Below, piece by piece: positions 1-6,291 of a stretch of DNA of 7,318 nt. The position numbers and the translations under genes were made by a program. Below the pieces are notes generated by a model. It was given only the letters and a program-made list of their open reading frames with translations, was not told where the DNA came from and ran no database searches. Numbering within the stretch: position 1 is the first letter of the stretch; the number at the start of each line of letters is the position of its first letter. Origin of the DNA: a virus (Duplodnaviria; Heunggongvirae; Uroviricota; Caudoviricetes); IMG/VR virus record IMGVR_UViG_2531839446_000012, positions 1 to 7,318 of that record, one strand, 5' to 3'.

Positions 1-68
1 CACCTCTCCACCGAAAGTCAGTGCTGGCTGTTTTTTTCCTTAATAAAGCATCTGTAACTGAAACAGTC

Positions 69-84
69 CGCATATTGATAATAT
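69..84. repeat. Left copy of perfect 16-bp direct repeat CGCATATTGATAATAT flanking the IS
   Basis: Identical 16-mer at 69-84 and 1421-1436, directly abutting both IS ends. Candidate target-site duplication, but far longer than the 3-5 bp usual for IS3-family elements. Confidence 0.9.
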
Positions 85-175
85 TGAGCTGGCCCCCTGA
101 AATACCAGACAGTAGATGTATCTTAAAATAAGAGATAGGCTTGGATATATGTCTAACACTAGTTCTAATTTTGAG

Positions 176-544
176 ATGGCTGGCGTTTTGTTAGGAAAAG
201 AGGTGCGTAAACGTAAAACACCTCAGGAAAAAATCGCAATTATTCAACAGACTATGGAGCCGGGCATGACGGTGTCCCACGTGGCGCGTTTGCATGGAAT
301 TCAGCCCAGTCTGTTGTTTAAGTGGAAGAAACAATATCAGGAAGGAAGCCTCACTGCTGTGGCTGCCGGTGAAGACGTTGTTCCTGCTTCTGAACTGGCC
401 GCTGCAATAAAGCAGATTAATCAGCTTCAGCGTTTACTGGGTAAGAAAACCATGGAAGTTGAGATCCTCAAAGAAGCGGTGGAGTATGCACAATCGCGAA
501 AATGGATAGCGCATGTGCCCTTGTTACCTTCGGACAAGGAATAG
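176..544 (+). CDS. IS3-family transposase OrfA (HTH DNA-binding, InsC-like)
   Basis: ORF-track frame 116-544; product from the ATG at 176 ([25 protein letters not shown]...[26 protein letters not shown]) aligns with IS2 InsC as recalled. The longest ORF starts at 116 but the first 20 codons have no counterpart in IS2 OrfA; 149 is another possible start. Confidence 0.8.
497..505 (+). other. Candidate -1 ribosomal frameshift site for OrfAB (CGA AAA TGG; A4 run 499-502)
   Basis: Only homopolymeric stretch in the orfA/orfB overlap; slipping back one base on AAAA puts the ATG at 502-504 in frame and joins ...AQSRK to MDSACALV... It is shorter than the A6G motif of IS911-type elements. Confidence 0.4.
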
Positions 545-1383
545 CCCCGGTAAGCCGTGTTCTGGGCGTGTCACGTGCGCAGTTAACATTAAGGATGAAG
601 GCATCTGATAACAAGCCAGATAAACGGCGTCAGAGGCGCGATGAGGCTGCGGATGCAGAAGTCTTATCGCGCATCCTGGATATCATTGGCGATATGCCAG
701 CATACGGGTATCGCCGTGTCTGGGCGATACTCAGGCGGCAGTCCCGAAATGAAGGACTACCGTTCGTGAATGCAAAGCGCGTTTACCGGATAATGAGCGA
801 AAATAGCCTGTTGTTGTTACATGACAAACCATCACGACGGCAGCGGGAACATAAAGGCCGAATATCGGTGAAGGAAAGCGACCAGCGTTGGTGTTCTGAT
901 GGCTTTGAGTTCGGTTGCGATGATGGCGAAAAACTGCGTGTTACGTTCGTCCTGGACTGTTGCGATCGTGAAGCCATAGACTGGGCCGCAAGCACGGGAG
1001 GTTACGATAAAGCGACAGTGCAGGATGTGATGTTAGGAGCGATAGAAAAACGCTTTGGCGATAAAGTACCGGAACAGTCCATCCAGTGGCTGACAGATAA
1101 CGGTTCAGCGTACAGAGCGCATGAAACACGGCAGTTCGCCAGAGAGCTGAATCTGAAGCCCTGCACAACGGCAATCAGTAGCCCCCAGAGTAATGGAATG
1201 GCAGAACGGTTCGTGAAAACGATGAAGGAAGACTACATCGCGTTCATGCCGAAACCAAATGTAAGAACGGCATTGCATAACCTTGCAGTGGCGATCGAGC
1301 ATTACAATGAAAACCATCCGCATAGTGCGTTGGGTTATCGCTCTCCGCGAGAATATCGACGTCAGCGGGTAATGTTAACTTAA
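502..1383 (+). CDS. IS3-family transposase OrfB (integrase/DDE catalytic core, InsD-like), probably made as an OrfAB fusion by -1 frameshift
   Basis: 293-aa ORF in the -1 frame relative to orfA, overlapping it by 43 nt; typical IS3/IS2 OrfB sequence (YRRVWAIL...WCSDGFEF...DNGSAY...[11 protein letters not shown]...[12 protein letters not shown]). Confidence 0.85.
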
Positions 1384-1420
1384 GATACAACCCCTGTCTG
1401 AAAATAAGGGGGCAAGAACA

Positions 1421-1436
1421 CGCATATTGATAATAT
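1421..1436. repeat. Right copy of perfect 16-bp direct repeat CGCATATTGATAATAT flanking the IS
   Basis: See left copy; 16/16 identity, same orientation. Confidence 0.9.
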
Positions 1437-1496
1437 ATTGACAGGCATCATTGCTGTCTGTGAAAAATAAGTCTCTACAAACATATAAGGCCTTTT

Positions 1497-1535
1497 AGCC
1501 AGCGTCTTCTTTCAGGTCAGTCGCTGGCTTTTTTT
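1497..1535 (+). terminator. Plus-strand hairpin plus T-run (possible intrinsic terminator), abutting the nanS-p stop
   Basis: AGCCAGCG (1497-1504) pairs with CGCTGGCT (1522-1529), 8 bp perfect, followed by T6-7 (1530-1535). The 17-nt loop is long, so confidence is low. On the minus strand the U-run precedes the stem, so it is not a minus-strand terminator. Confidence 0.3.
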
Positions 1536-1536
1536 A

Positions 1537-3387
1537 TTATGCTGCCGGTGCATTTATCTCCAGCACCAGACTTTCTATCTCAACGCCATACGCTGCATTT
1601 TTTGTAACATCCGTCAGCGTCAGCGCATTCAGTCCCAGTGTCAGACCGTCTTTTATAACCTGGAATGCCGGGCCAGCCACTCCATTCAGTTTCGGAGTAA
1701 CCGTGGCACTGCCGGCGGTGAACACCAGCTCCAGCGTCTGCCAGTCGTTACCGTAATCGCCGAACTCCCCCAGCTTCGTGTTTCCGGCTTTCCTGTGATG
1801 CATCAGATTCACTCTGCCGTCAGTGGTCTGAGTGAAGTACGACATCAGGAACGGATTACCGGTACCCGTCATCGCCACACCATCAGGAACGGGAGCATCC
1901 GTATACAGATAAATCCCCAGCCCGAACTGATTGTTGGTCAGTGCGCCTGACAGGCGGAACTTACAGGTCAGTCTGCCGCCCTGTGTCAGCAGGGTAATTG
2001 CGTCATCCACCGGATGCGTCAGGGACCAGGTTTTATTGCTCTGCTTGGTGATCTTAAATACACCATCTGACAACTGAATTCCGCCATCCTTAATGCTCCA
2101 GCCCTGCGCAGCAGCCTCTCCGGCTGCCGGCAGCAGGGAGATTGTGCGAACGGACGTATCTGCAGACGGACCCGATGGCGTGTTGCCGCCGGGCGAGGGT
2201 TTGATTTCCGGTGCCTTACCACTGATGAAGGCTGAGGTGCGCCCGGCTGCGTTCAGAATAGCGGTTGCCATACGATCCGGAATAATGCTCCTGCGCGCCC
2301 ATGAACTGAAATGTGTCGGGCGGTTTGATGATACCTGGTTTCCATTCGTTCTCGATGCCGCACCGTAATATCCTGATGCCGGAATATCCGGATCTTCTGC
2401 CGGCGCGTTAGTGGCGGTATTGACGCCGTTACCGTCTGTCATGAAGGGCACAAAATAAACGCCCTCACTCTCCCTGTTTTTATACGCGCCGTACACGGTG
2501 TCGTACTGCGTGCCGTAGGTATTTTTCCAGTAATACGTCGTGTCACCACAAATCCACGGCACATCTGCAGCACTGCCACCATGGCACTGCGCGTTAAACA
2601 CGGAGAGGTCAGCACGAAACTGTGTCAGCATGGCTGTAAACAGCGCAGGTTGCTGTGCGTGGGTGGCGGCGCTCATGTCAAACTCTCCCTGCATCCAGCA
2701 CACCGCCAGCAACACATTTTTCGGGTTCTTCTGTAATGCAGCTTTAGTGCGCGCAATCAGGTCCTGATATAACGGTTTACCCACACCCCAGCGTGCCGAA
2801 TCCTGGCTGGCCCCCGTGTCCGCACTGAATGTCCCCTCAGCGCCCTGGGTGAATGCAGAACCACCACGACAGCATGGTACCAGCAGGATCCCCGCGTTAT
2901 TCGGGATATACGGAAGCAGTTTTTTGGCAATATGTAAGCCCTGGCCGACACAGCCGTACTGCCCTTTGCTCAGGTCTGCCTTCGGATGATTCAGCGTACT
3001 CATATCCTGCACATCATGCAGGCAGTGGTCGGCCGGAATAATATCGTTATATCTGCAGGCAGCCCCACCCGGCGTAACTGTACTGCGGCGCGCCAGCTGT
3101 TTAATGCGCGGATCCGGAGCATCGTATGAATCCGGAAGCGGAAGCCCTTCCCCGTAAGCCATTGCATTGGACTGCCCGGCCAGTACGATGACGTAGTACC
3201 AATCCGGCTCAGTTGCACCACTGACCACCACATCACCTTCTGCTGCAATCGCCTGCATCAGGGTATAAGGGGTTATGGCCACCGGACTACCAAACGGCTG
3301 CCAGCCCTCTTTCAGTTTGTGTGTCAGCTTTTCCGCAAGGTCTGACGGCGACGCCGCCCTGACAACATCATAATGTTTAATCGACAT
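1537..3387 (-). CDS. nanS-p: Prophage sialate 9-O-acetylesterase, NanS-p type (N-terminal DUF1737-like, SASA/SGNH esterase core, C-terminal carbohydrate-binding region)
   Basis: Intact 616-aa ORF; N-terminus MSIKHYDVVRAASPSDLAEKLTHKLKEGWQPFGSPVAI and the esterase motif VLAGQSNAMAYG match the NanS-p proteins of EHEC lambdoid prophages as recalled. SD GGGAGA lies 7 nt upstream of the ATG at 3387. It sits downstream of the tRNA cluster, as in Stx phages. Confidence 0.85.
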   Translation of the reverse strand: MSIKHYDVVRAASPSDLAEKLTHKLKEGWQPFGSPVAITPYTLMQAIAAEGDVVVSGATEPDWYYVIVLAGQSNAMAYGEGLPLPDSYDAPDPRIKQLARRSTVTPGGAACRYNDIIPADHCLHDVQDMSTLNHPKADLSKGQYGCVGQGLHIAKKLLPYIPNNAGILLVPCCRGGSAFTQGAEGTFSADTGASQDSARWGVGKPLYQDLIARTKAALQKNPKNVLLAVCWMQGEFDMSAATHAQQPALFTAMLTQFRADLSVFNAQCHGGSAADVPWICGDTTYYWKNTYGTQYDTVYGAYKNRESEGVYFVPFMTDGNGVNTATNAPAEDPDIPASGYYGAASRTNGNQVSSNRPTHFSSWARRSIIPDRMATAILNAAGRTSAFISGKAPEIKPSPGGNTPSGPSADTSVRTISLLPAAGEAAAQGWSIKDGGIQLSDGVFKITKQSNKTWSLTHPVDDAITLLTQGGRLTCKFRLSGALTNNQFGLGIYLYTDAPVPDGVAMTGTGNPFLMSYFTQTTDGRVNLMHHRKAGNTKLGEFGDYGNDWQTLELVFTAGSATVTPKLNGVAGPAFQVIKDGLTLGLNALTLTDVTKNAAYGVEIESLVLEINAPAA

Positions 3388-3473
3388 CGAATTTCTCCCG
3401 TGTACAGGAACAGAGTTAAAAAGCCGGAACCGGAATCAAATCACAGGATGACCATCTGCCAGTGGCTGGTCGT

Positions 3474-3500
3474 AAAAAAAAGGCCGCGCCATGCGCAGCC
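3474..3500 (-). terminator. Rho-independent terminator (minus strand) between the membrane ORF and nanS-p
   Basis: Minus-strand RNA GGCUGCGC-AUG-GCGCGGCC (8-bp GC-rich stem, one G-U) followed by U8 (reverse complement of the A8 run at 3474-3481). Confidence 0.6.
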
Positions 3501-3701
3501 GGAAATAAAGGGATAACGATGATAGTTTGAGAAAAACAGAAATAACACTTTTGTGGCAAAGCATGGTGCCGGGTGCCTCCCGGTGAATTCAGTACCAGCA
3601 CCTGAATCCGCGATTATCCCATATACCTACTCGCTGATTGCCCCTCCGCACAGGGGGATTCACCATGCAGAAGTGTTTTTAATAAACAGCAAACAAAAAA
3701 A

Positions 3702-3869
3702 TCAAGCATTATGCAGGCTGTTTCTTTTTATCACCGGCCACAGCAATACCACAATGCCGCAGACCAGCACCCCATCCGCCAGCACCGACATGATTCTGCT
3801 GGTGAAATCCACCATCACCACCAGAAACAGCAGGAGTGCAGCCACAGTCAGGCGCAGTTTTACCGTCAC
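3702..3869 (-). CDS. Small hydrophobic membrane protein (55 aa, two predicted TM helices), translationally coupled to the TerB-like gene
   Basis: Not in the ORF track (GTG start, under 60 aa). The GTG at 3869-3867 overlaps the TerB-like stop as GTGA, with GGAG 10 nt upstream. Product MTVKLRLTVAALLLFLVVMVDFTSRIMSVLADGVLVCGIVVLLWPVIKRNSLHNA. Same strand and operon position as its neighbour. Confidence 0.35.
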   Translation of the reverse strand: MTVKLRLTVAALLLFLVVMVDFTSRIMSVLADGVLVCGIVVLLWPVIKRNSLHNA

Positions 3870-4298
3870 AGGTGATTCTCCAGACGAAGACCCAGAACAC
3901 CGGCAATCTCTTCCAGCACCTTGCGCTCTTCCGGCTCAATTTCGCCGTCTGCCTCCGCAATGGCCACCGCCACATCCAGCACATCTTCCGCTTCACGCGT
4001 ATCGTGTTTCACATCCTCGATCTCACGTAACGCCGCACGACGACCAATTTTAAAGTTCGTATCCAGCTGACCGATAATGGTTGCGCTAATCGCATTAATT
4101 TCTGACGTAAACGCGGACAGCGCAGGCTGATTACGCAGTACCTGTTCGATCTTCGCTTTCTAGGAAGCCTCACATTCACCATCTGCACAGGCCACCAGGT
4201 ATGCGGCGTTAATCACCACCTGTGCCAGATCGCGTTTTTCAAACTTTTTAATTTCCGTTGCCGCTCTGCGGGCTTTTTTTACCAAAAATACCAAACAT
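3866..4298 (-). pseudogene. TerB-like (tellurite-resistance TerB domain) gene carrying a +1 frameshift and an in-frame amber codon
   Basis: ATG at 4298-4296 with AAGGA SD gives MFGIFGKK, then the frame breaks in the A7 run (plus T7 at 4274-4280). The downstream frame reads ARRAATEIKKFEKRDLAQVVINAAYLVACADGECEAS*KAKIEQVL...DVLDVAVAIAEADGEIEPEERKVLEEIAGVLGLRLENHL, with TAG at 4162-4160. The two ADG...E..K repeats are the TerB signature as recalled. Removing one A restores a single frame. Confidence 0.7.
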
Positions 4299-4430
4299 CG
4301 TGACGTTCCTTTGGGTGGGTGAGCCAACGCCCGGAAGCGATCTGCCCACAGAGAAAGTCACACTGACCACTCCGTAAGCTCACCCCCGAAAGGCTCTGTG
4401 GTTGATATGCACCGGGCGTGGCGCAGATAC

Positions 4431-4455
4431 AAAAAAGGCCCGCCGAAGCGAGCCT
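4431..4455 (-). terminator. Rho-independent terminator (minus strand) 12 nt after tRNA-Arg
   Basis: Minus-strand RNA AGGCUCGC-UUCG-GCGGGCCU (8-bp stem, UUCG tetraloop) followed by a U5-6 run. Confidence 0.65.
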
Positions 4456-4467
4456 GGAAAATAAGTG

Positions 4468-4544
4468 TGGCGCGTTGTAGTGGAGTCGAACCAGTGACCG
4501 ATTGCTTAGAAGGCAATTGCTCTGTCCGGCTGAGCTAACAACGC
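4468..4544 (-). tRNA. tRNA-Arg (anticodon UCU), phage argN/argO-like
   Basis: Hand-folded cloverleaf: acceptor GCGTTGT/ACAACGC, D-arm GCTC...GAGC, anticodon stem ATTGC/GCAAT with loop CTTCTAA, T-loop TTCGACT, discriminator G, encoded CCA. One C-C mismatch in the T-stem. Confidence 0.8.
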
Positions 4545-4644
4545 AGAATACCGATAATGGACCGCCATCGGGGACCCGCCCCCGCACCAACAACCCTGTT
4601 ATGGTGTCGTCTGCTCTTCCTGATAAGCTAATGGCGGTATGTGA

Positions 4645-4720
4645 TGGTGGCCCTTGCTGGATTTGAACCAGCGACCTGGCGATTATGAGTCGCTCGCTCT
4701 CACCACTGAGCTAAAGGGCC
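4645..4720 (-). tRNA. tRNA-Ile2 (anticodon CAU, ileX/ileZ-like; formally could be tRNA-Met)
   Basis: 76-nt cloverleaf GGCCCTTTAGCTCAGTGGTGAGAGCGAGCGACTCATAATCGCCAGGTCGCTGGTTCAAATCCAGCAAGGGCCACCA: 7-bp acceptor, T-arm GCTGG-TTCAAAT-CCAGC, anticodon loop CTCATAA. Very close to E. coli ileX as recalled. Confidence 0.85.
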
Positions 4721-4769
4721 GGGACCAGAATAATAATGGTGCGAAATTAATTCTGCAATCTCATCCGTT

Positions 4770-5820
4770 TCAAACGATTAAATCCTGAACTTCCCTGACT
4801 GTCTGCTCAAAACGTTCAGTCTCCAGCTCAACGCCAATTGCACGACGCCCGAGCGCCAGTGCCGCTTTTACCGTTGAACCTGAGCCCATAAAAAAATCTG
4901 CAACCAGGTCACCCGGACGACTGCTTGCGCTGATTATCTGCTGCAGCATTTCTGCCGGTTTTTCGCACGGATGTTTCCCGGGATAGAACTGCACCGGTTT
5001 ATGTGTCCACACATCCGTGTACGGCACCTGCGCCGTCACACCAAAATACCGCCGCAGATGCTTATATTCACTCTGCAGCTCCGCATACTGTCGGTTCAGA
5101 GAGGCATACGTATCCACCAGCTGGTGGTGGGGCTTTTCCAGTTCACCCCGCTGATGCTTCTCTTCTGCCACCCGGGCAAACAGTGCCTGTAATTTCAGAT
5201 AATCGCTTTCGTTCGGCAGCTGCCACTGACCGGCACTGAACCAGTGCGACACCATGTTTTTCTTTCCTGTGGCATCTGCAATCTGTTTTGCCGTTATCCC
5301 CAGGACAGCGCGCGCATCACGAAAGTAAGCAATCAGCGGGGCCATCACATGCTGTTTCAGTGCCCTACCCTTCGCCTCATACCCGGCATCTTTCGGACGA
5401 TACGGCCCCTGATAATGCTCTGCGAACAGAATGCGCTCTGTGGCGGGGAAATACGCCCGCAGGCTTTCCTTGTTGCACCCGTTCCAGCGTCCGGACGGCT
5501 TTTGCCCAGATGATATGGTTCAGCACGTTAAACCGCTCACGCATCATGATTTCGGTGTCAGATGCCAGACGATGGCCACAGAACAGGTAAAGACTTCCGG
5601 CAGGTTTCAGCACCCGCCAGAACTGCGCAAGACACTGGTCCAGCCACTTCAGGTAATCTTCATCACCCGCCCACTGGTTATCCCAGCCCTCGGGTTTCAC
5701 TTTGAAGTACGGCGGGTCCGTGACTATCAGGTCAACAGAATTTTCGGGTAACGACCGCATAAATTCCAGGCAGTCGGCGTTGATTAACTCACAACTGGAT
5801 ATTTTTACAGTATTAAGCAT
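4770..5820 (-). pseudogene. Orphan DNA N6-adenine methyltransferase (beta class, N6_N4_Mtase family), split by a +1 frameshift as given
   Basis: N-terminal ORF 5377-5820 has motif IV (DLIVTDPPYF) and NHIIWAK; C-terminal ORF 4770-5348 has HPCEKP and motif I (DFFMGSGST). After WAK the N frame becomes Arg-rich junk, while the +1 frame continues plausibly (PSGRWNGCNKESLRAYFPATERILFAEHYQGPYRP...). Break is at the T4 run 5500-5503 (expected T3). No restriction enzyme gene nearby. Confidence 0.7.
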
Positions 5821-5852
5821 GGATCATTAAGCCTGTCTCTGATAGGCTCATT

Positions 5853-5871
5853 CTGCTTTTGCGCAAAGCAG
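5853..5871 (-). other. Stem-loop (7-bp stem, 5-nt loop) in the MTase leader
   Basis: CTGCTTT (5853-5859) pairs with AAAGCAG (5865-5871); no U-run follows. Confidence 0.3.
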
Positions 5872-5912
5872 TGGGCCTGAGGTTTGCTTGTGAACCCAAC
5901 GCATGAGCAGAT

Positions 5913-5943
5913 GGCTGGTGGGTGCCCCTTACACCCACCAGCC
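5913..5943 (-). other. Perfect 12-bp inverted repeat with 7-nt loop in the MTase leader
   Basis: GGCTGGTGGGTG (5913-5924) and CACCCACCAGCC (5932-5943) are exact reverse complements; loop CCCCTTA. No U-run on either strand, so not a canonical terminator. Confidence 0.4.
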
Positions 5944-5960
5944 GCCCATTTACCACAAAT

Positions 5961-5984
5961 AAAAAAGCCTTCAGGACTGAAGGC
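5961..5984 (-). terminator. Rho-independent terminator (minus strand) overlapping the stop of the small wHTH ORF
   Basis: Minus-strand RNA GCCUUCAG-UC-CUGAAGGC (7-8 bp stem) followed by UUUUUUAUUU. Confidence 0.6.
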
Positions 5985-6168
5985 GTCTGTAACAACCAAA
6001 CTGATAGTCTGCCAGACCCGCCATAACCAGCTGGGTCAGTATTAACTGGCAGCGTTCGCGTGAAAGGTAAGTATTCTGCGCAATCTCCCCGACTGTCGCC
6101 GGGTCGGTAACGCTTAATTCATTAAACACCACTCTGGCGGTTTCTGTCATATCCTGCTGTTTCAGCAT
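5971..6168 (-). CDS. Small winged-helix/HTH DNA-binding protein (65 aa), function unknown
   Basis: Internal ATG of ORF-track entry 5971-6291, product MLKQQDMTETARVVFNELSVTDPATVGEIAQNTYLSRERCQLILTQLVMAGLADYQFGCYRRLQS; the N-terminal extension is rejected because it crosses the upstream terminator and looks non-protein-like. HTH-like segment TVGEIAQNTYLSRERCQLILTQLVMAGL; weak SD AAGGG upstream. Confidence 0.45.
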   Translation of the reverse strand: MLKQQDMTETARVVFNELSVTDPATVGEIAQNTYLSRERCQLILTQLVMAGLADYQFGCYRRLQS

Positions 6169-6291
6169 GTCTTTTTCCCTTTTCCGGTTAACGTGACACA
6201 CCAATAACTCTTGTCGAAAAAGCCAGCAACCTGAAAGAACGGTATTAATAACCACCAGCGAATTTATTGCGCTGCTGTATATTACGGACAC

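Follow-up and report, generated by a model that had tools for sequence, protein, structure and literature searches.

A tciA–tciB cassette with an interrupted TerB-family gene in the stx position of a lambdoid late region

Stx phages carry their stx genes in the late region, between a group of tRNA genes and nanS-p. The window analysed here (the whole stretch of 7,318 nucleotides, positions 1 to 7,318 of IMG/VR record IMGVR_UViG_2531839446_000012) carries other genes at this place, which raises the question of what occupies the toxin position, what it would do for the phage and whether this copy can still do it. We consider it quite probable that the occupant is a tciA–tciB cassette in a lambdoid cargo slot, that such cassettes are expressed late with TciA docked by TciB, and that the copy in the window is dead. 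All features located below lie on the minus strand of the window.

Both flanks of the slot have counterparts in phage 933W. On one side, window positions 4409-4871 are 85.7% identical to the 933W tRNA region, with the match ending 32 nt before stxA2; on the other, positions 3561-3686 are 72% identical to the segment lying 87-222 nt after stxB2 and 97.5% identical to phage 75/02 Stx (blastn). Because both flanks align, the intervening 722 nt of the window (3687-4408) take the place of 1,358 nt of 933W, exactly the stretch with stx2AB. These homology arms bear out the placement, proposed in the sequence-only reading, of the cassette at the stxAB position, between the late-region tRNAs and nanS-p. 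The gene order given there for the neighbours was confirmed as well, with a Q-type late antiterminator (DUF1133/Phage_antitermQ; 6410..6952), a tRNA with a CAT anticodon (tRNA-Ile2; 4645..4720; an ileZ-like tRNA-Ile according to PGAP in near-identical DNA), a tRNA-Arg (TCT; 4468..4544) and, downstream of the slot, a nanS-p-type esterase (DUF1737, SASA and DUF6645; 1537..3387). In alignment with 933W and O157 Z866, the spacer separating the two tRNA genes (4545..4644) contains a degenerate middle tRNA (argN of 933W), and ARAGORN called no tRNA in this spacer, even at a relaxed threshold. Unlike 933W, the window has, between Q and the tRNAs, a frameshifted gene for a DNA methyltransferase as well as an ORF of 65 aa. 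A terminator-like hairpin downstream of tRNA-Arg (4436..4455) is homologous to the annotated 933W terminator upstream of stx. The rest of the slot, which had gone unmentioned in the earlier reading, is an STnc100-like (PasD-related) sRNA known from the literature (3525..3697; Rfam RF02076, 101.5 bits against a gathering cutoff of 47). It begins 5 nt past the tciB stop codon, its core (3561-3686) constitutes the right-hand homology arm common to Stx phages, and it is followed, ahead of nanS-p, by another terminator-like hairpin with a T run (3482..3500).

The first gene of the cassette, tciA (3866..4298; 433 nt, from the ATG at 4298-4296 to the TGA at 3868-3866), is a TerB-family pseudogene. 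Its repaired product matches Pfam TerB (PF05099) over residues 32-139 (E = 5.8e-14; 52.8 bits against a gathering cutoff of 24.4) and PHROG 632 end to end (E = 2e-68), and a profile of 22 TciA proteins matches the TerB structure 2JXU in the PDB (E = 1.1e-16; residues 13-137 against 19-144). The TerB identification first proposed from the sequence is borne out by all three matches, the profile search with the repaired protein included. The AF2 model of TciA is all-alpha (pLDDT 89.4), and the top hits of a fold search with this model were the TerB-like structures 2H5N and 2OU3, at a TM score of only about 0.55. Two acidic (A/S)DGxxxxxE motifs stand out, in which D39, G40 and E46 as well as D117, G118 and E124 show no or almost no variation, with E46 invariant across the 22 diverse TciA proteins. 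The tciA gene codes for a stand-alone, full-length member of the TerB family, all-helical and cytoplasmic, with two ADGxxxxxE motifs. Product names in databases go further and imply that a TerB homologue of this kind makes the host resistant to tellurite, in line with its membership of Pfam TerB and its full-length homology to Klebsiella TerB. We regard this as very improbable: terZ, terA, terC, terD and terE are absent from the window and from every related locus examined, the resistant constructs described in the literature carry at least terBCDEF, the key membrane component is regarded as TerC and not TerB, and the gene in the window is interrupted.

The second gene, tciB (3702..3869; GTG at 3869-3867, TGA at 3704-3702), is intact and encodes a 55-aa DUF3927 protein with two transmembrane helices. 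In the sequence GTGA, the start codon of tciB overlaps the stop codon of tciA. The product matches Pfam DUF3927 (PF13064) over residues 3-51 of 55 (E = 3.3e-17; 62.6 bits against a cutoff of 25) and PHROG 1470 over residues 1-54 (E = 5.6e-30); these scores, like those for TerB, lie far beyond chance. Hydropathy delineates segments at about residues 5-24 and 26-48 with a short turn between them, basic residues are found at either terminus, the topology being deduced from the positive-inside rule, and the family shares the motif DFTS[KR]xMSxLADGxL...WP. The tciB product is a hairpin of approximately 55 aa with two transmembrane helices, the translation of which is coupled to the tciA stop. Natural TciA–TciB fusion proteins also exist (P0009 and P0065).

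The pair is already known, named and catalogued, and the observation is real but ordinary. It is annotated as tciA/tciB in JLK-2012, PPyecE and P1. PGAP labels it, under the product names 'tellurite resistance TerB family protein' and 'DUF3927 family protein', in about 800 of the 5,426 complete E. coli genomes. A tciB sequence lies 3' of tciA in all 149 IMG/VR copies, and a coupled small membrane ORF occupies this position in each of the nine loci from other enterobacterial species as well as in P1, Pollock, ChrisDB, Nican01 and LIET2, with stop/start overlaps of the GTGA, TAATG or TGATG type. Virulent phages are among the carriers, namely N4-like and jumbo phages and phages of Pantoea and Pseudomonas. 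The description of the 55-aa ORF as a conserved, translationally coupled membrane partner holds up, with conservation beside tciA found in nine of nine species loci. Neither of the two outcomes named as refuting in the sequence-only reading, failure of the TerB match and lack of conservation of the 55-aa ORF, occurred. The membrane partner is not universal, because two distant phages with TciA, Vibrio K481 and Rhizobium TM16, have no small membrane ORF downstream of tciA, and in Pseudomonas phage AF the ORF at this place is a different one, with a single helix. Since the TciA-profile scan of one genome per species yielded only nine loci, the taxonomic breadth of TciA rests mainly on the phage collection. 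Among intact tciA copies, codons 47-143 show 56 synonymous and 9 nonsynonymous variants, against a neutral expectation of about 3:1 nonsynonymous to synonymous (binomial p = 2e-25).

Two further associations were considered in this survey. Genes for tRNAs adjoin the cassette in the window, JLK-2012, P1 and ChrisDB; as a general rule this linkage was rejected, with a tRNA within 2.5 kb in two of the nine species loci and none annotated near the Pollock pair, and the adjacency more likely reflects a shared recombination hot spot. Phage 434 was rejected as a case of tciB without tciA: the gene upstream encodes a 247-aa membrane protein without a TerB domain and, since the match to the window is broken off within tciB, the 434 gene resembles a remnant of recombination and not an alternative pairing.

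Does the copy in the window still work? As the sequence-only reading implied, the tciA frame is in need of repair, and this at two places. Alignment with intact alleles places an in-frame TAG (4160..4162) at codon 46, in place of the GAG for Glu46, the conserved glutamate of the first ADGxxxxxE motif, and an A7 homopolymer (4274..4280; A6 in JLK-2012-type alleles) puts the ATG one base out of frame. The A7 run is common to other copies rather than private to the window and does not clearly inactivate the gene: in O157:H7 strain Z866 the A7 run goes together with GAG as codon 46, and the gene is called intact there by PGAP, from an alternative TTG start (window 4294-4292). The 47 A7 copies in IMG/VR comprise 30 with TAG, 16 with GAG and an open frame, and 1 that is cut. 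In the near-identical copy of 14EC007 (99.9%), PGAP flags an internal stop. The tciA gene of the window is a pseudogene with no intact frame, and the module is genetically dead; at most, the tciB product alone might still be made, coupled initiation having been lost.

The TAG was considered as a lesion private to one genome, and this was rejected, given that an exact 35-mer containing it occurs at 961 places in 576 of the 5,426 complete E. coli genomes, across many serotypes. Of all tciA copies in complete E. coli genomes, about 36% are of the TAG type. Such a wide spread would be accounted for if the allele were functional, through read-through of the stop or as a split gene consisting of an N-terminal peptide and a C-terminal 48-aa ORF; the frame 3' of the TAG is open in the 71 copies examined, and a PHROG family of 48-aa proteins (3920) matches the C-terminal ORF. 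Several observations nevertheless make function of the TAG allele highly unlikely. Of the 71 TAG copies in IMG/VR, 67 are damaged a second time at the 5' end, by the A7 frameshift (29 copies) or by loss of the start and the first ~18 codons (38 copies), the stop falls on a residue of the motif that is invariant, the neighbourhood encodes no suppressor tRNA, and the variants private to TAG copies are few and without synonymous bias (2 synonymous, 3 nonsynonymous). The counts themselves are explained by copy redundancy, by heavy oversampling of STEC clones and by recombination among prophages; the redundancy follows from the median of 4 tciA copies per carrier genome. The TAG allele is a common, horizontally spread and decaying pseudogene of multi-copy lambdoid prophages.

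The fate of tciB in these copies bears on another reading of the pair, in which TciB perturbs the membrane, in the manner of a holin or a regulator of lysis timing, and TciA serves as its cytoplasmic regulator or antidote. A broken tciB is found in 19 of 71 TAG copies versus 6 of 78 GAG copies (Fisher p = 0.002, for copies that are not independent), a pattern that would fit counter-selection of an unopposed toxin. The size and predicted N-in/C-in topology of TciB are those of class II holins and pinholins, helix 2 contains a near-invariant Asp, and in lambdoid phages the late operon contains both the pair and, about 2.5 kb downstream of it, the holin. However, tciB stays intact in 73% of TAG copies, the window's included, no Pfam holin family matches TciB, the carrier phages already encode holins of their own, and the pair is not beside lysis genes in P1, Pollock or the jumbo phages. 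We consider the holin-like interpretation decidedly unlikely. Given its retention in the same 73% of TAG copies, some role of tciB independent of tciA is conceivable, and tciB may have one.

Expression bears on when an intact cassette would act. Between 3300 and 4800, a crude consensus scan, which may miss weak or non-sigma-70 promoters, found no promoter-like site on the gene strand. Because no promoter of its own is apparent and the terminator at 4455-4436 precedes it, tciAB is expected to follow the pattern of stx2, with transcription in lytic growth that starts at the late promoter and depends on antitermination by Q, the presumed driver of transcription through the slot. A similar arrangement is seen in P1, where tciABC lies downstream of the C1-operated ban promoters. 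Once made, TciB would tether TciA to the inner membrane on its cytoplasmic side. The docking is proposed by analogy with the ter system, in which TerB is reported to interact with TerC, an integral membrane protein (Turkovicova 2016); we infer a putative physical interaction between TciA and TciB from synteny and coupling alone. The pair could then modulate, to the benefit of the phage, membrane or ion homeostasis in the infected cell, possibly by keeping the membrane energised or by excluding pore-forming colicins or superinfecting phages.

The sequence-only reading had instead suggested a stress or phage-defence moron, a gene pair of lysogenic conversion expressed in the lysogen and guarding the host against superinfection or against membrane or oxidative stress. 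The slot is indeed a known cargo position, held by stx in Stx phages, PHROGs places both families in the class 'moron, auxiliary metabolic gene and host takeover', and the ter cluster of plasmid R478, which includes terB, is linked in the literature to phage inhibition and colicin resistance. Direct support for a moron did not emerge: PADLOC-DB 2.0 gave no significant match (the best for TciA was PDC-S48, at 13.7 bits and E = 0.0058, with none for TciB), the scan for an upstream promoter-like site on the gene strand was negative and a terminator precedes the cassette, nonsense alleles amount to about 36% of E. coli copies, and the gene in the window is dead. Moreover, virulent phages, for which there is no lysogen to protect, carry the pair as well. 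Among these carriers, we take the Erwinia jumbo phages, Pantoea phage LIET2 and Pseudomonas phage Nican01 to be virulent. The N4-like phage Pollock belongs with them, being presumably lytic according to its authors. On this evidence, conversion of the lysogen appears unlikely. The virulent carriers, the apparent lack of an own promoter and the lack of a significant PADLOC match lead us to favour a membrane-docked TerB module of the lytic cycle over a defence moron of the lysogen.

We would go beyond this only tentatively. TciA–TciB might represent a lytic-cycle membrane module that is under purifying selection in temperate lambdoid and P1-like phages and in the virulent carriers alike and meets a general phage need, a generalization that we put forward as a possibility on the doubtful side. 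Its spread may fit a role in countering membrane-collapsing abortive-infection systems or in excluding competitors, with a TerB sensor carried on a 55-aa hairpin. Experiments on TciA or TciB were not found in the searchable literature. The P1 tci names were given by homology only, and the P1 tci genes are non-essential for plaque formation as judged by CRISPRi.

Our results show that lambdoid late operons have, at their stx position, a general exchange slot, bordered by the tRNA cluster and its terminator on one side and by the STnc100-like sRNA and nanS-p on the other, and that many non-Stx prophages carry a tciA–tciB cassette in it. The practical value is limited and concerns annotation: about a third of E. 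coli tciA copies have one nonsense allele in common, A7 alleles are called from the TTG start, and some phage records miss tciB-like ORFs. For biology, the question is what use a TerB protein with a tiny membrane partner is to lambda-like, P1-like and N4-like phages alike.

The cassette can be compared with four known systems. In the tciA-tciB-tciC operon of P1 (Lobocka et al.), TciA is a homologue (51% identity by tblastn, 40% in alignment), and TciB is a DUF3927 homologue that shares the conserved motif and lies directly downstream with a stop/start overlap. The P1 cassette likewise adjoins phage tRNA genes, and its operon, like that of the window, is expected to be active in lytic growth. 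It differs in that P1 has tciC, a 35-aa ORF with one helix, whereas the window has the STnc100-like sRNA after tciB; in that the P1 genes belong to the C1-controlled ban operon and those of the window to a Q-dependent late operon; and in that the tciA of the window is a pseudogene. With TerB of terZABCDE (Klebsiella and IncHI2 R478; 2JXU), TciA shares family, length and the two-motif architecture, and the membrane association of TerB through TerC is the model for the proposed docking of TciA on TciB. By contrast, the window is without terC, terD, terE, terZ and terA nearby, the gene is phage-borne, and a DUF3927 hairpin of 55 aa serves as partner where the ter operon has the multi-pass TerC. 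The stxAB cargo of 933W occupies the same slot between the same flanks (tRNA cluster and terminator; STnc100-like element and nanS-p) and is presumed to share Q-dependent late expression, but its gene content is unrelated, 1,358 nt as opposed to 722 nt, and the tciAB products are not secreted toxins. Phage JLK-2012 (JQ347801) and, as PGAP-labelled pairs, non-Stx prophages in O157:H7 and other E. coli have the same cassette, 90-98% identical to that of the window at the DNA level and likewise flanked by the late-region tRNAs and by nanS-p/yjhS. There, however, tciA is intact and codon 46 is GAG, with A6 and an ATG in frame in JLK-2012, and the tRNA sets and Q types are different.

The window is the late region of a lambdoid prophage and is read on the minus strand, where a RusA gene (7308-6949) comes first, followed by a Q-type antiterminator gene with DUF1133 and Phage_antitermQ domains (6952-6410), a 65-aa ORF, an N6/N4 DNA methyltransferase gene (5820-4770) split by a frameshift into ORFs 5820-5377 and 5348-4770, a tRNA with a CAT anticodon (4720-4645; near-identical DNA carries a tRNA-Ile annotation), a 100-nt spacer (4644-4545), tRNA-Arg (TCT; 4544-4468), a terminator-like hairpin (4455-4436), the two ORFs under study, tciA and tciB (4298-3702), an STnc100-like RNA (3697-3525), a second terminator-like hairpin (3500-3482) and a nanS-p-type esterase gene with DUF1737, SASA and DUF6645 domains (3387-1537). 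The spacer looks like a decayed tRNA gene, since it aligns with argN of the reference Stx2 phage 933W, has scrambled anticodon and T arms and yields no tRNA with ARAGORN or Rfam. On the plus strand, ISEc48, an IS3-family element (about 85-1420; 99.3% identity with annotated copies), is inserted 3' of nanS-p between two copies of the direct repeat cgcatattgataatat (69-84 and 1421-1436), which at 16 nt exceeds the usual target duplication of this family. The near-identical DNA of strain 14EC007 has an intact methyltransferase gene of 1,050 nt, in place of the split one, and IS421 in the interval equivalent to the spacer.

The tciA frame runs from ATG 4298 to TGA 3866, and tciB from GTG 3869 to TGA 3702, so that stop and start overlap as GTGA. 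With its two lesions repaired, TciA matches Pfam TerB at 52.8 bits (gathering score 24.4; E = 5.8e-14) and, along its entire length, the PHROG 632 family ('tellurite resistance'; E = 2e-68); a profile built from 22 TciA homologues hits 2JXU, an experimentally solved TerB, over nearly its full length (E = 1.1e-16). The AlphaFold model of an intact database homologue with 98% identity to the window TciA (P0001) is confident (pLDDT 89.4) and all-helical; it comes closest in fold to the TerB-like structures 2H5N and 2OU3, at modest TM scores of about 0.55. TciB (55 aa) has two hydrophobic segments, basic ends and the conserved motif DFTS[KR]xMSxLADGxL...WP; it matches Pfam DUF3927 at 62.6 bits (gathering score 25) and, end to end, PHROG 1470, labelled 'TciB-like' (E = 5.6e-30). 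The sequence-only reading, which had described a TerB-domain gene followed by a GTGA-coupled 55-aa ORF with two transmembrane segments in the position of stx, was thus a real and accurate observation, and it survived both the TerB profile search and the check on conservation of the small ORF beside tciA.

Its structural interpretation is correct, and its placement of the pair is borne out by alignment with 933W. The left arm (4409-4871) corresponds to the 933W tRNA region and stops 32 nt short of stxA2, and the right arm (3561-3686) corresponds to the sequence 87-222 nt past stxB2, with 97.5% identity to the equivalent place in Stx1 phage 75/02. From the positions of both arms, the 722 nt of window 3687-4408 stand in for 1,358 nt of 933W that carry stx2AB. 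The right arm coincides with the core of the STnc100-like sRNA, which is related to PasD (Rfam RF02076; 101.5 bits, gathering score 47) and begins 5 nt past the stop codon of tciB, with the second terminator after it. This core is also kept just 3' of stxB in phages of both the Stx1 and the Stx2 type, which makes the sRNA the right-hand limit of the exchangeable slot; it might be a product of the 3' end of either transcript, tciAB or stx. According to a 2026 preprint, STnc100-like RNAs are related to PasD, a prophage sRNA, and TerB is among the conserved neighbours of Pas sRNA loci.

The tciA copy in the window is a pseudogene. Codon 46 (4160-4162) is TAG instead of GAG, and the lost Glu46, which closes the first ADGxxxxxE motif, is invariant across 22 diverse TciA proteins. 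In addition, a run of seven A residues (A7; 4280-4274) throws the ATG out of frame, where the lambdoid phage JLK-2012 has six. Read from this ATG, A7 alleles close after 16 codons, and a TTG (4294-4292) opens the TerB frame; such alleles may start at the TTG, undergo a +1 slip on AAA-AAA-A or fail to initiate. O157:H7 strain Z866 combines A7 with GAG and is annotated by PGAP from the TTG four bases past the ATG (WP_001303509.1), and 16 IMG/VR copies with A7 and GAG keep the TTG frame open, so that A7 alone may not inactivate tciA, whereas TAG does. The rest of the window looks degraded too, with its frameshifted methyltransferase, degenerate middle tRNA and inserted IS element.

Intact tciA is under strong purifying selection, as shown by 56 synonymous versus 9 nonsynonymous changes in codons 47-143; the changes confined to TAG copies (2 synonymous, 3 nonsynonymous) do not suffice for a verdict. 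Of 5,426 complete E. coli genomes, 804 carry a conserved tciA 59-mer, in all at 2,678 places and in a median of four copies each. An exact 35-mer spanning TAG is found at 961 places in 576 of these genomes, about 36% of tciA copies, in O157, O26, O103, O111, O121, O145 and non-STEC strains, and TAG is present in 82 of 351 IMG/VR tciA stretches; these counts are inflated by heavy sampling of STEC clones. A functional TAG allele would fit such spread, but this alternative is very unlikely. The comparison covered 71 TAG and 78 GAG copies, the latter biased toward intact tciA because they were chosen as best-scoring tblastn matches. The in-frame ATG is kept in 4 of 71 TAG and 78 of 78 GAG copies, A7 is present in 29 and none, the 5' end is deleted in 38 and none, and tciB is broken in 19 and 6, respectively (for tciB, Fisher p = 0.002, with copies that are not independent). 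In the 38 deleted copies (for example, loci L096, L103 and L136), a leader just 3' of Q, the same sequence as window ~6170-6240, is fused to tciA at about codon 19, and the small ORF, methyltransferase, tRNAs and tciA start are gone. The simplest reading is that the TAG allele is a young pseudogene, which recombination has passed between redundant lambdoid prophages sharing a host and which is still decaying. PHROG 3920 (48 aa) seems to represent the C-terminal remnant (4012-3866) that gene callers predict as an ORF in TAG copies.

The pairing extends well beyond E. coli. All nine loci from other species, including Pantoea, Pseudescherichia, Franconibacter, Buttiauxella and 'Enterobacter' pulveris, carry an ORF of 49-54 aa, predicted to form two transmembrane helices, that starts at or a few bases from the tciA stop (overlaps GTGA, TAATG, TGATG or TTGA), with the DUF3927 motif in eight. 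A coupled small ORF also follows tciA in P1, the N4-like phage Pollock and, in divergent form, one Erwinia jumbo phage; it is present and unannotated in Pantoea phage LIET2 and Pseudomonas phage Nican01 (PP179318). The Nican01 ORF (60 aa; locus L184, 1335-1517) begins 3 nt past the TerB gene stop and has a clear DUF3927-like motif, IDSVSRIISMCADGFL...WPLIKK; it is an overlooked tciB homologue. The exceptions are Pseudomonas phage AF, where a different, one-helix ORF is coupled by GTGA, and Vibrio K481 and Rhizobium TM16, in which no small membrane ORF lies 3' of tciA. Phage 434 has an annotated TciB (locus L002, 3287-3445), but its 5' end and the upstream gene have been replaced: homology with the window covers nanS-p and the sRNA and ends inside tciB, and the upstream gene encodes an unrelated protein of 247 aa that spans the membrane several times and matches neither TerB nor any other Pfam family. 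TciB of phage 434 is a chimera. Two database proteins (P0009, 197 aa; P0065, 170 aa) join TerB and DUF3927 in a single chain, probably because the frame shifts at the GTGA junction or ahead of it; either natural frameshifts or fusions, or else sequencing errors, could account for them. The pair adjoins tRNA genes in three unrelated lineages (P1, JLK-2012 and ChrisDB), and a tRNA-Asn/tRNA-Thr pair 5' of tciAB is common to JLK-2012 and P1; this association is not general, as only two of the nine species loci have a tRNA neighbour.

No sigma-70-like site was found on the gene strand in window 4800-3300, and the terminator 5' of tciA is homologous to one annotated 5' of stx2 in 933W. We therefore expect tciAB transcription to rely on Q-modified polymerase coming from the late promoter, the established mode for stx2. 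The P1 genes lie 3' of C1-operated ban promoters and the pair is carried by virulent phages, both of which point to a job for the phage in lytic growth. The alternative of a lysogen-protecting defence moron, close to the stress or phage-defence role suggested from sequence, finds no support here, given the missing sigma-70-like site, the carriage by virulent phages and the pseudogene in the window. An interaction of TerB with TerC, an integral membrane protein, has been reported; on this model, TciB would serve as the inner-membrane anchor of TciA, whose acidic motifs could there sense or bind a cation or other ligand, and the pair would stabilize the infected-cell membrane or exclude pore-formers and competing phages, a hypothesis that we consider rather doubtful. 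Two further alternatives, both unlikely, are tellurite resistance, as in the PHROG label and the PGAP name of tciA ('tellurite resistance TerB family protein'; tciB is a 'DUF3927 family protein'), and a holin or toxin-like pair, which the two hydrophobic segments of TciB would fit. No experimental test of tciA or tciB function was found in the searchable literature.

The element itself is already catalogued. JLK-2012 carries the pair, annotated tciA/tciB, in the same place, with tRNAs on one side and yjhS/nanS-p on the other, and PPyecE_EH1910 has it as 'TciA/TerB-like'. The names derive from tciA-tciB-tciC of phage P1, where they were assigned by homology to terB and where the genes are non-essential by CRISPRi and constitute one variable region of P1-like phage-plasmids.
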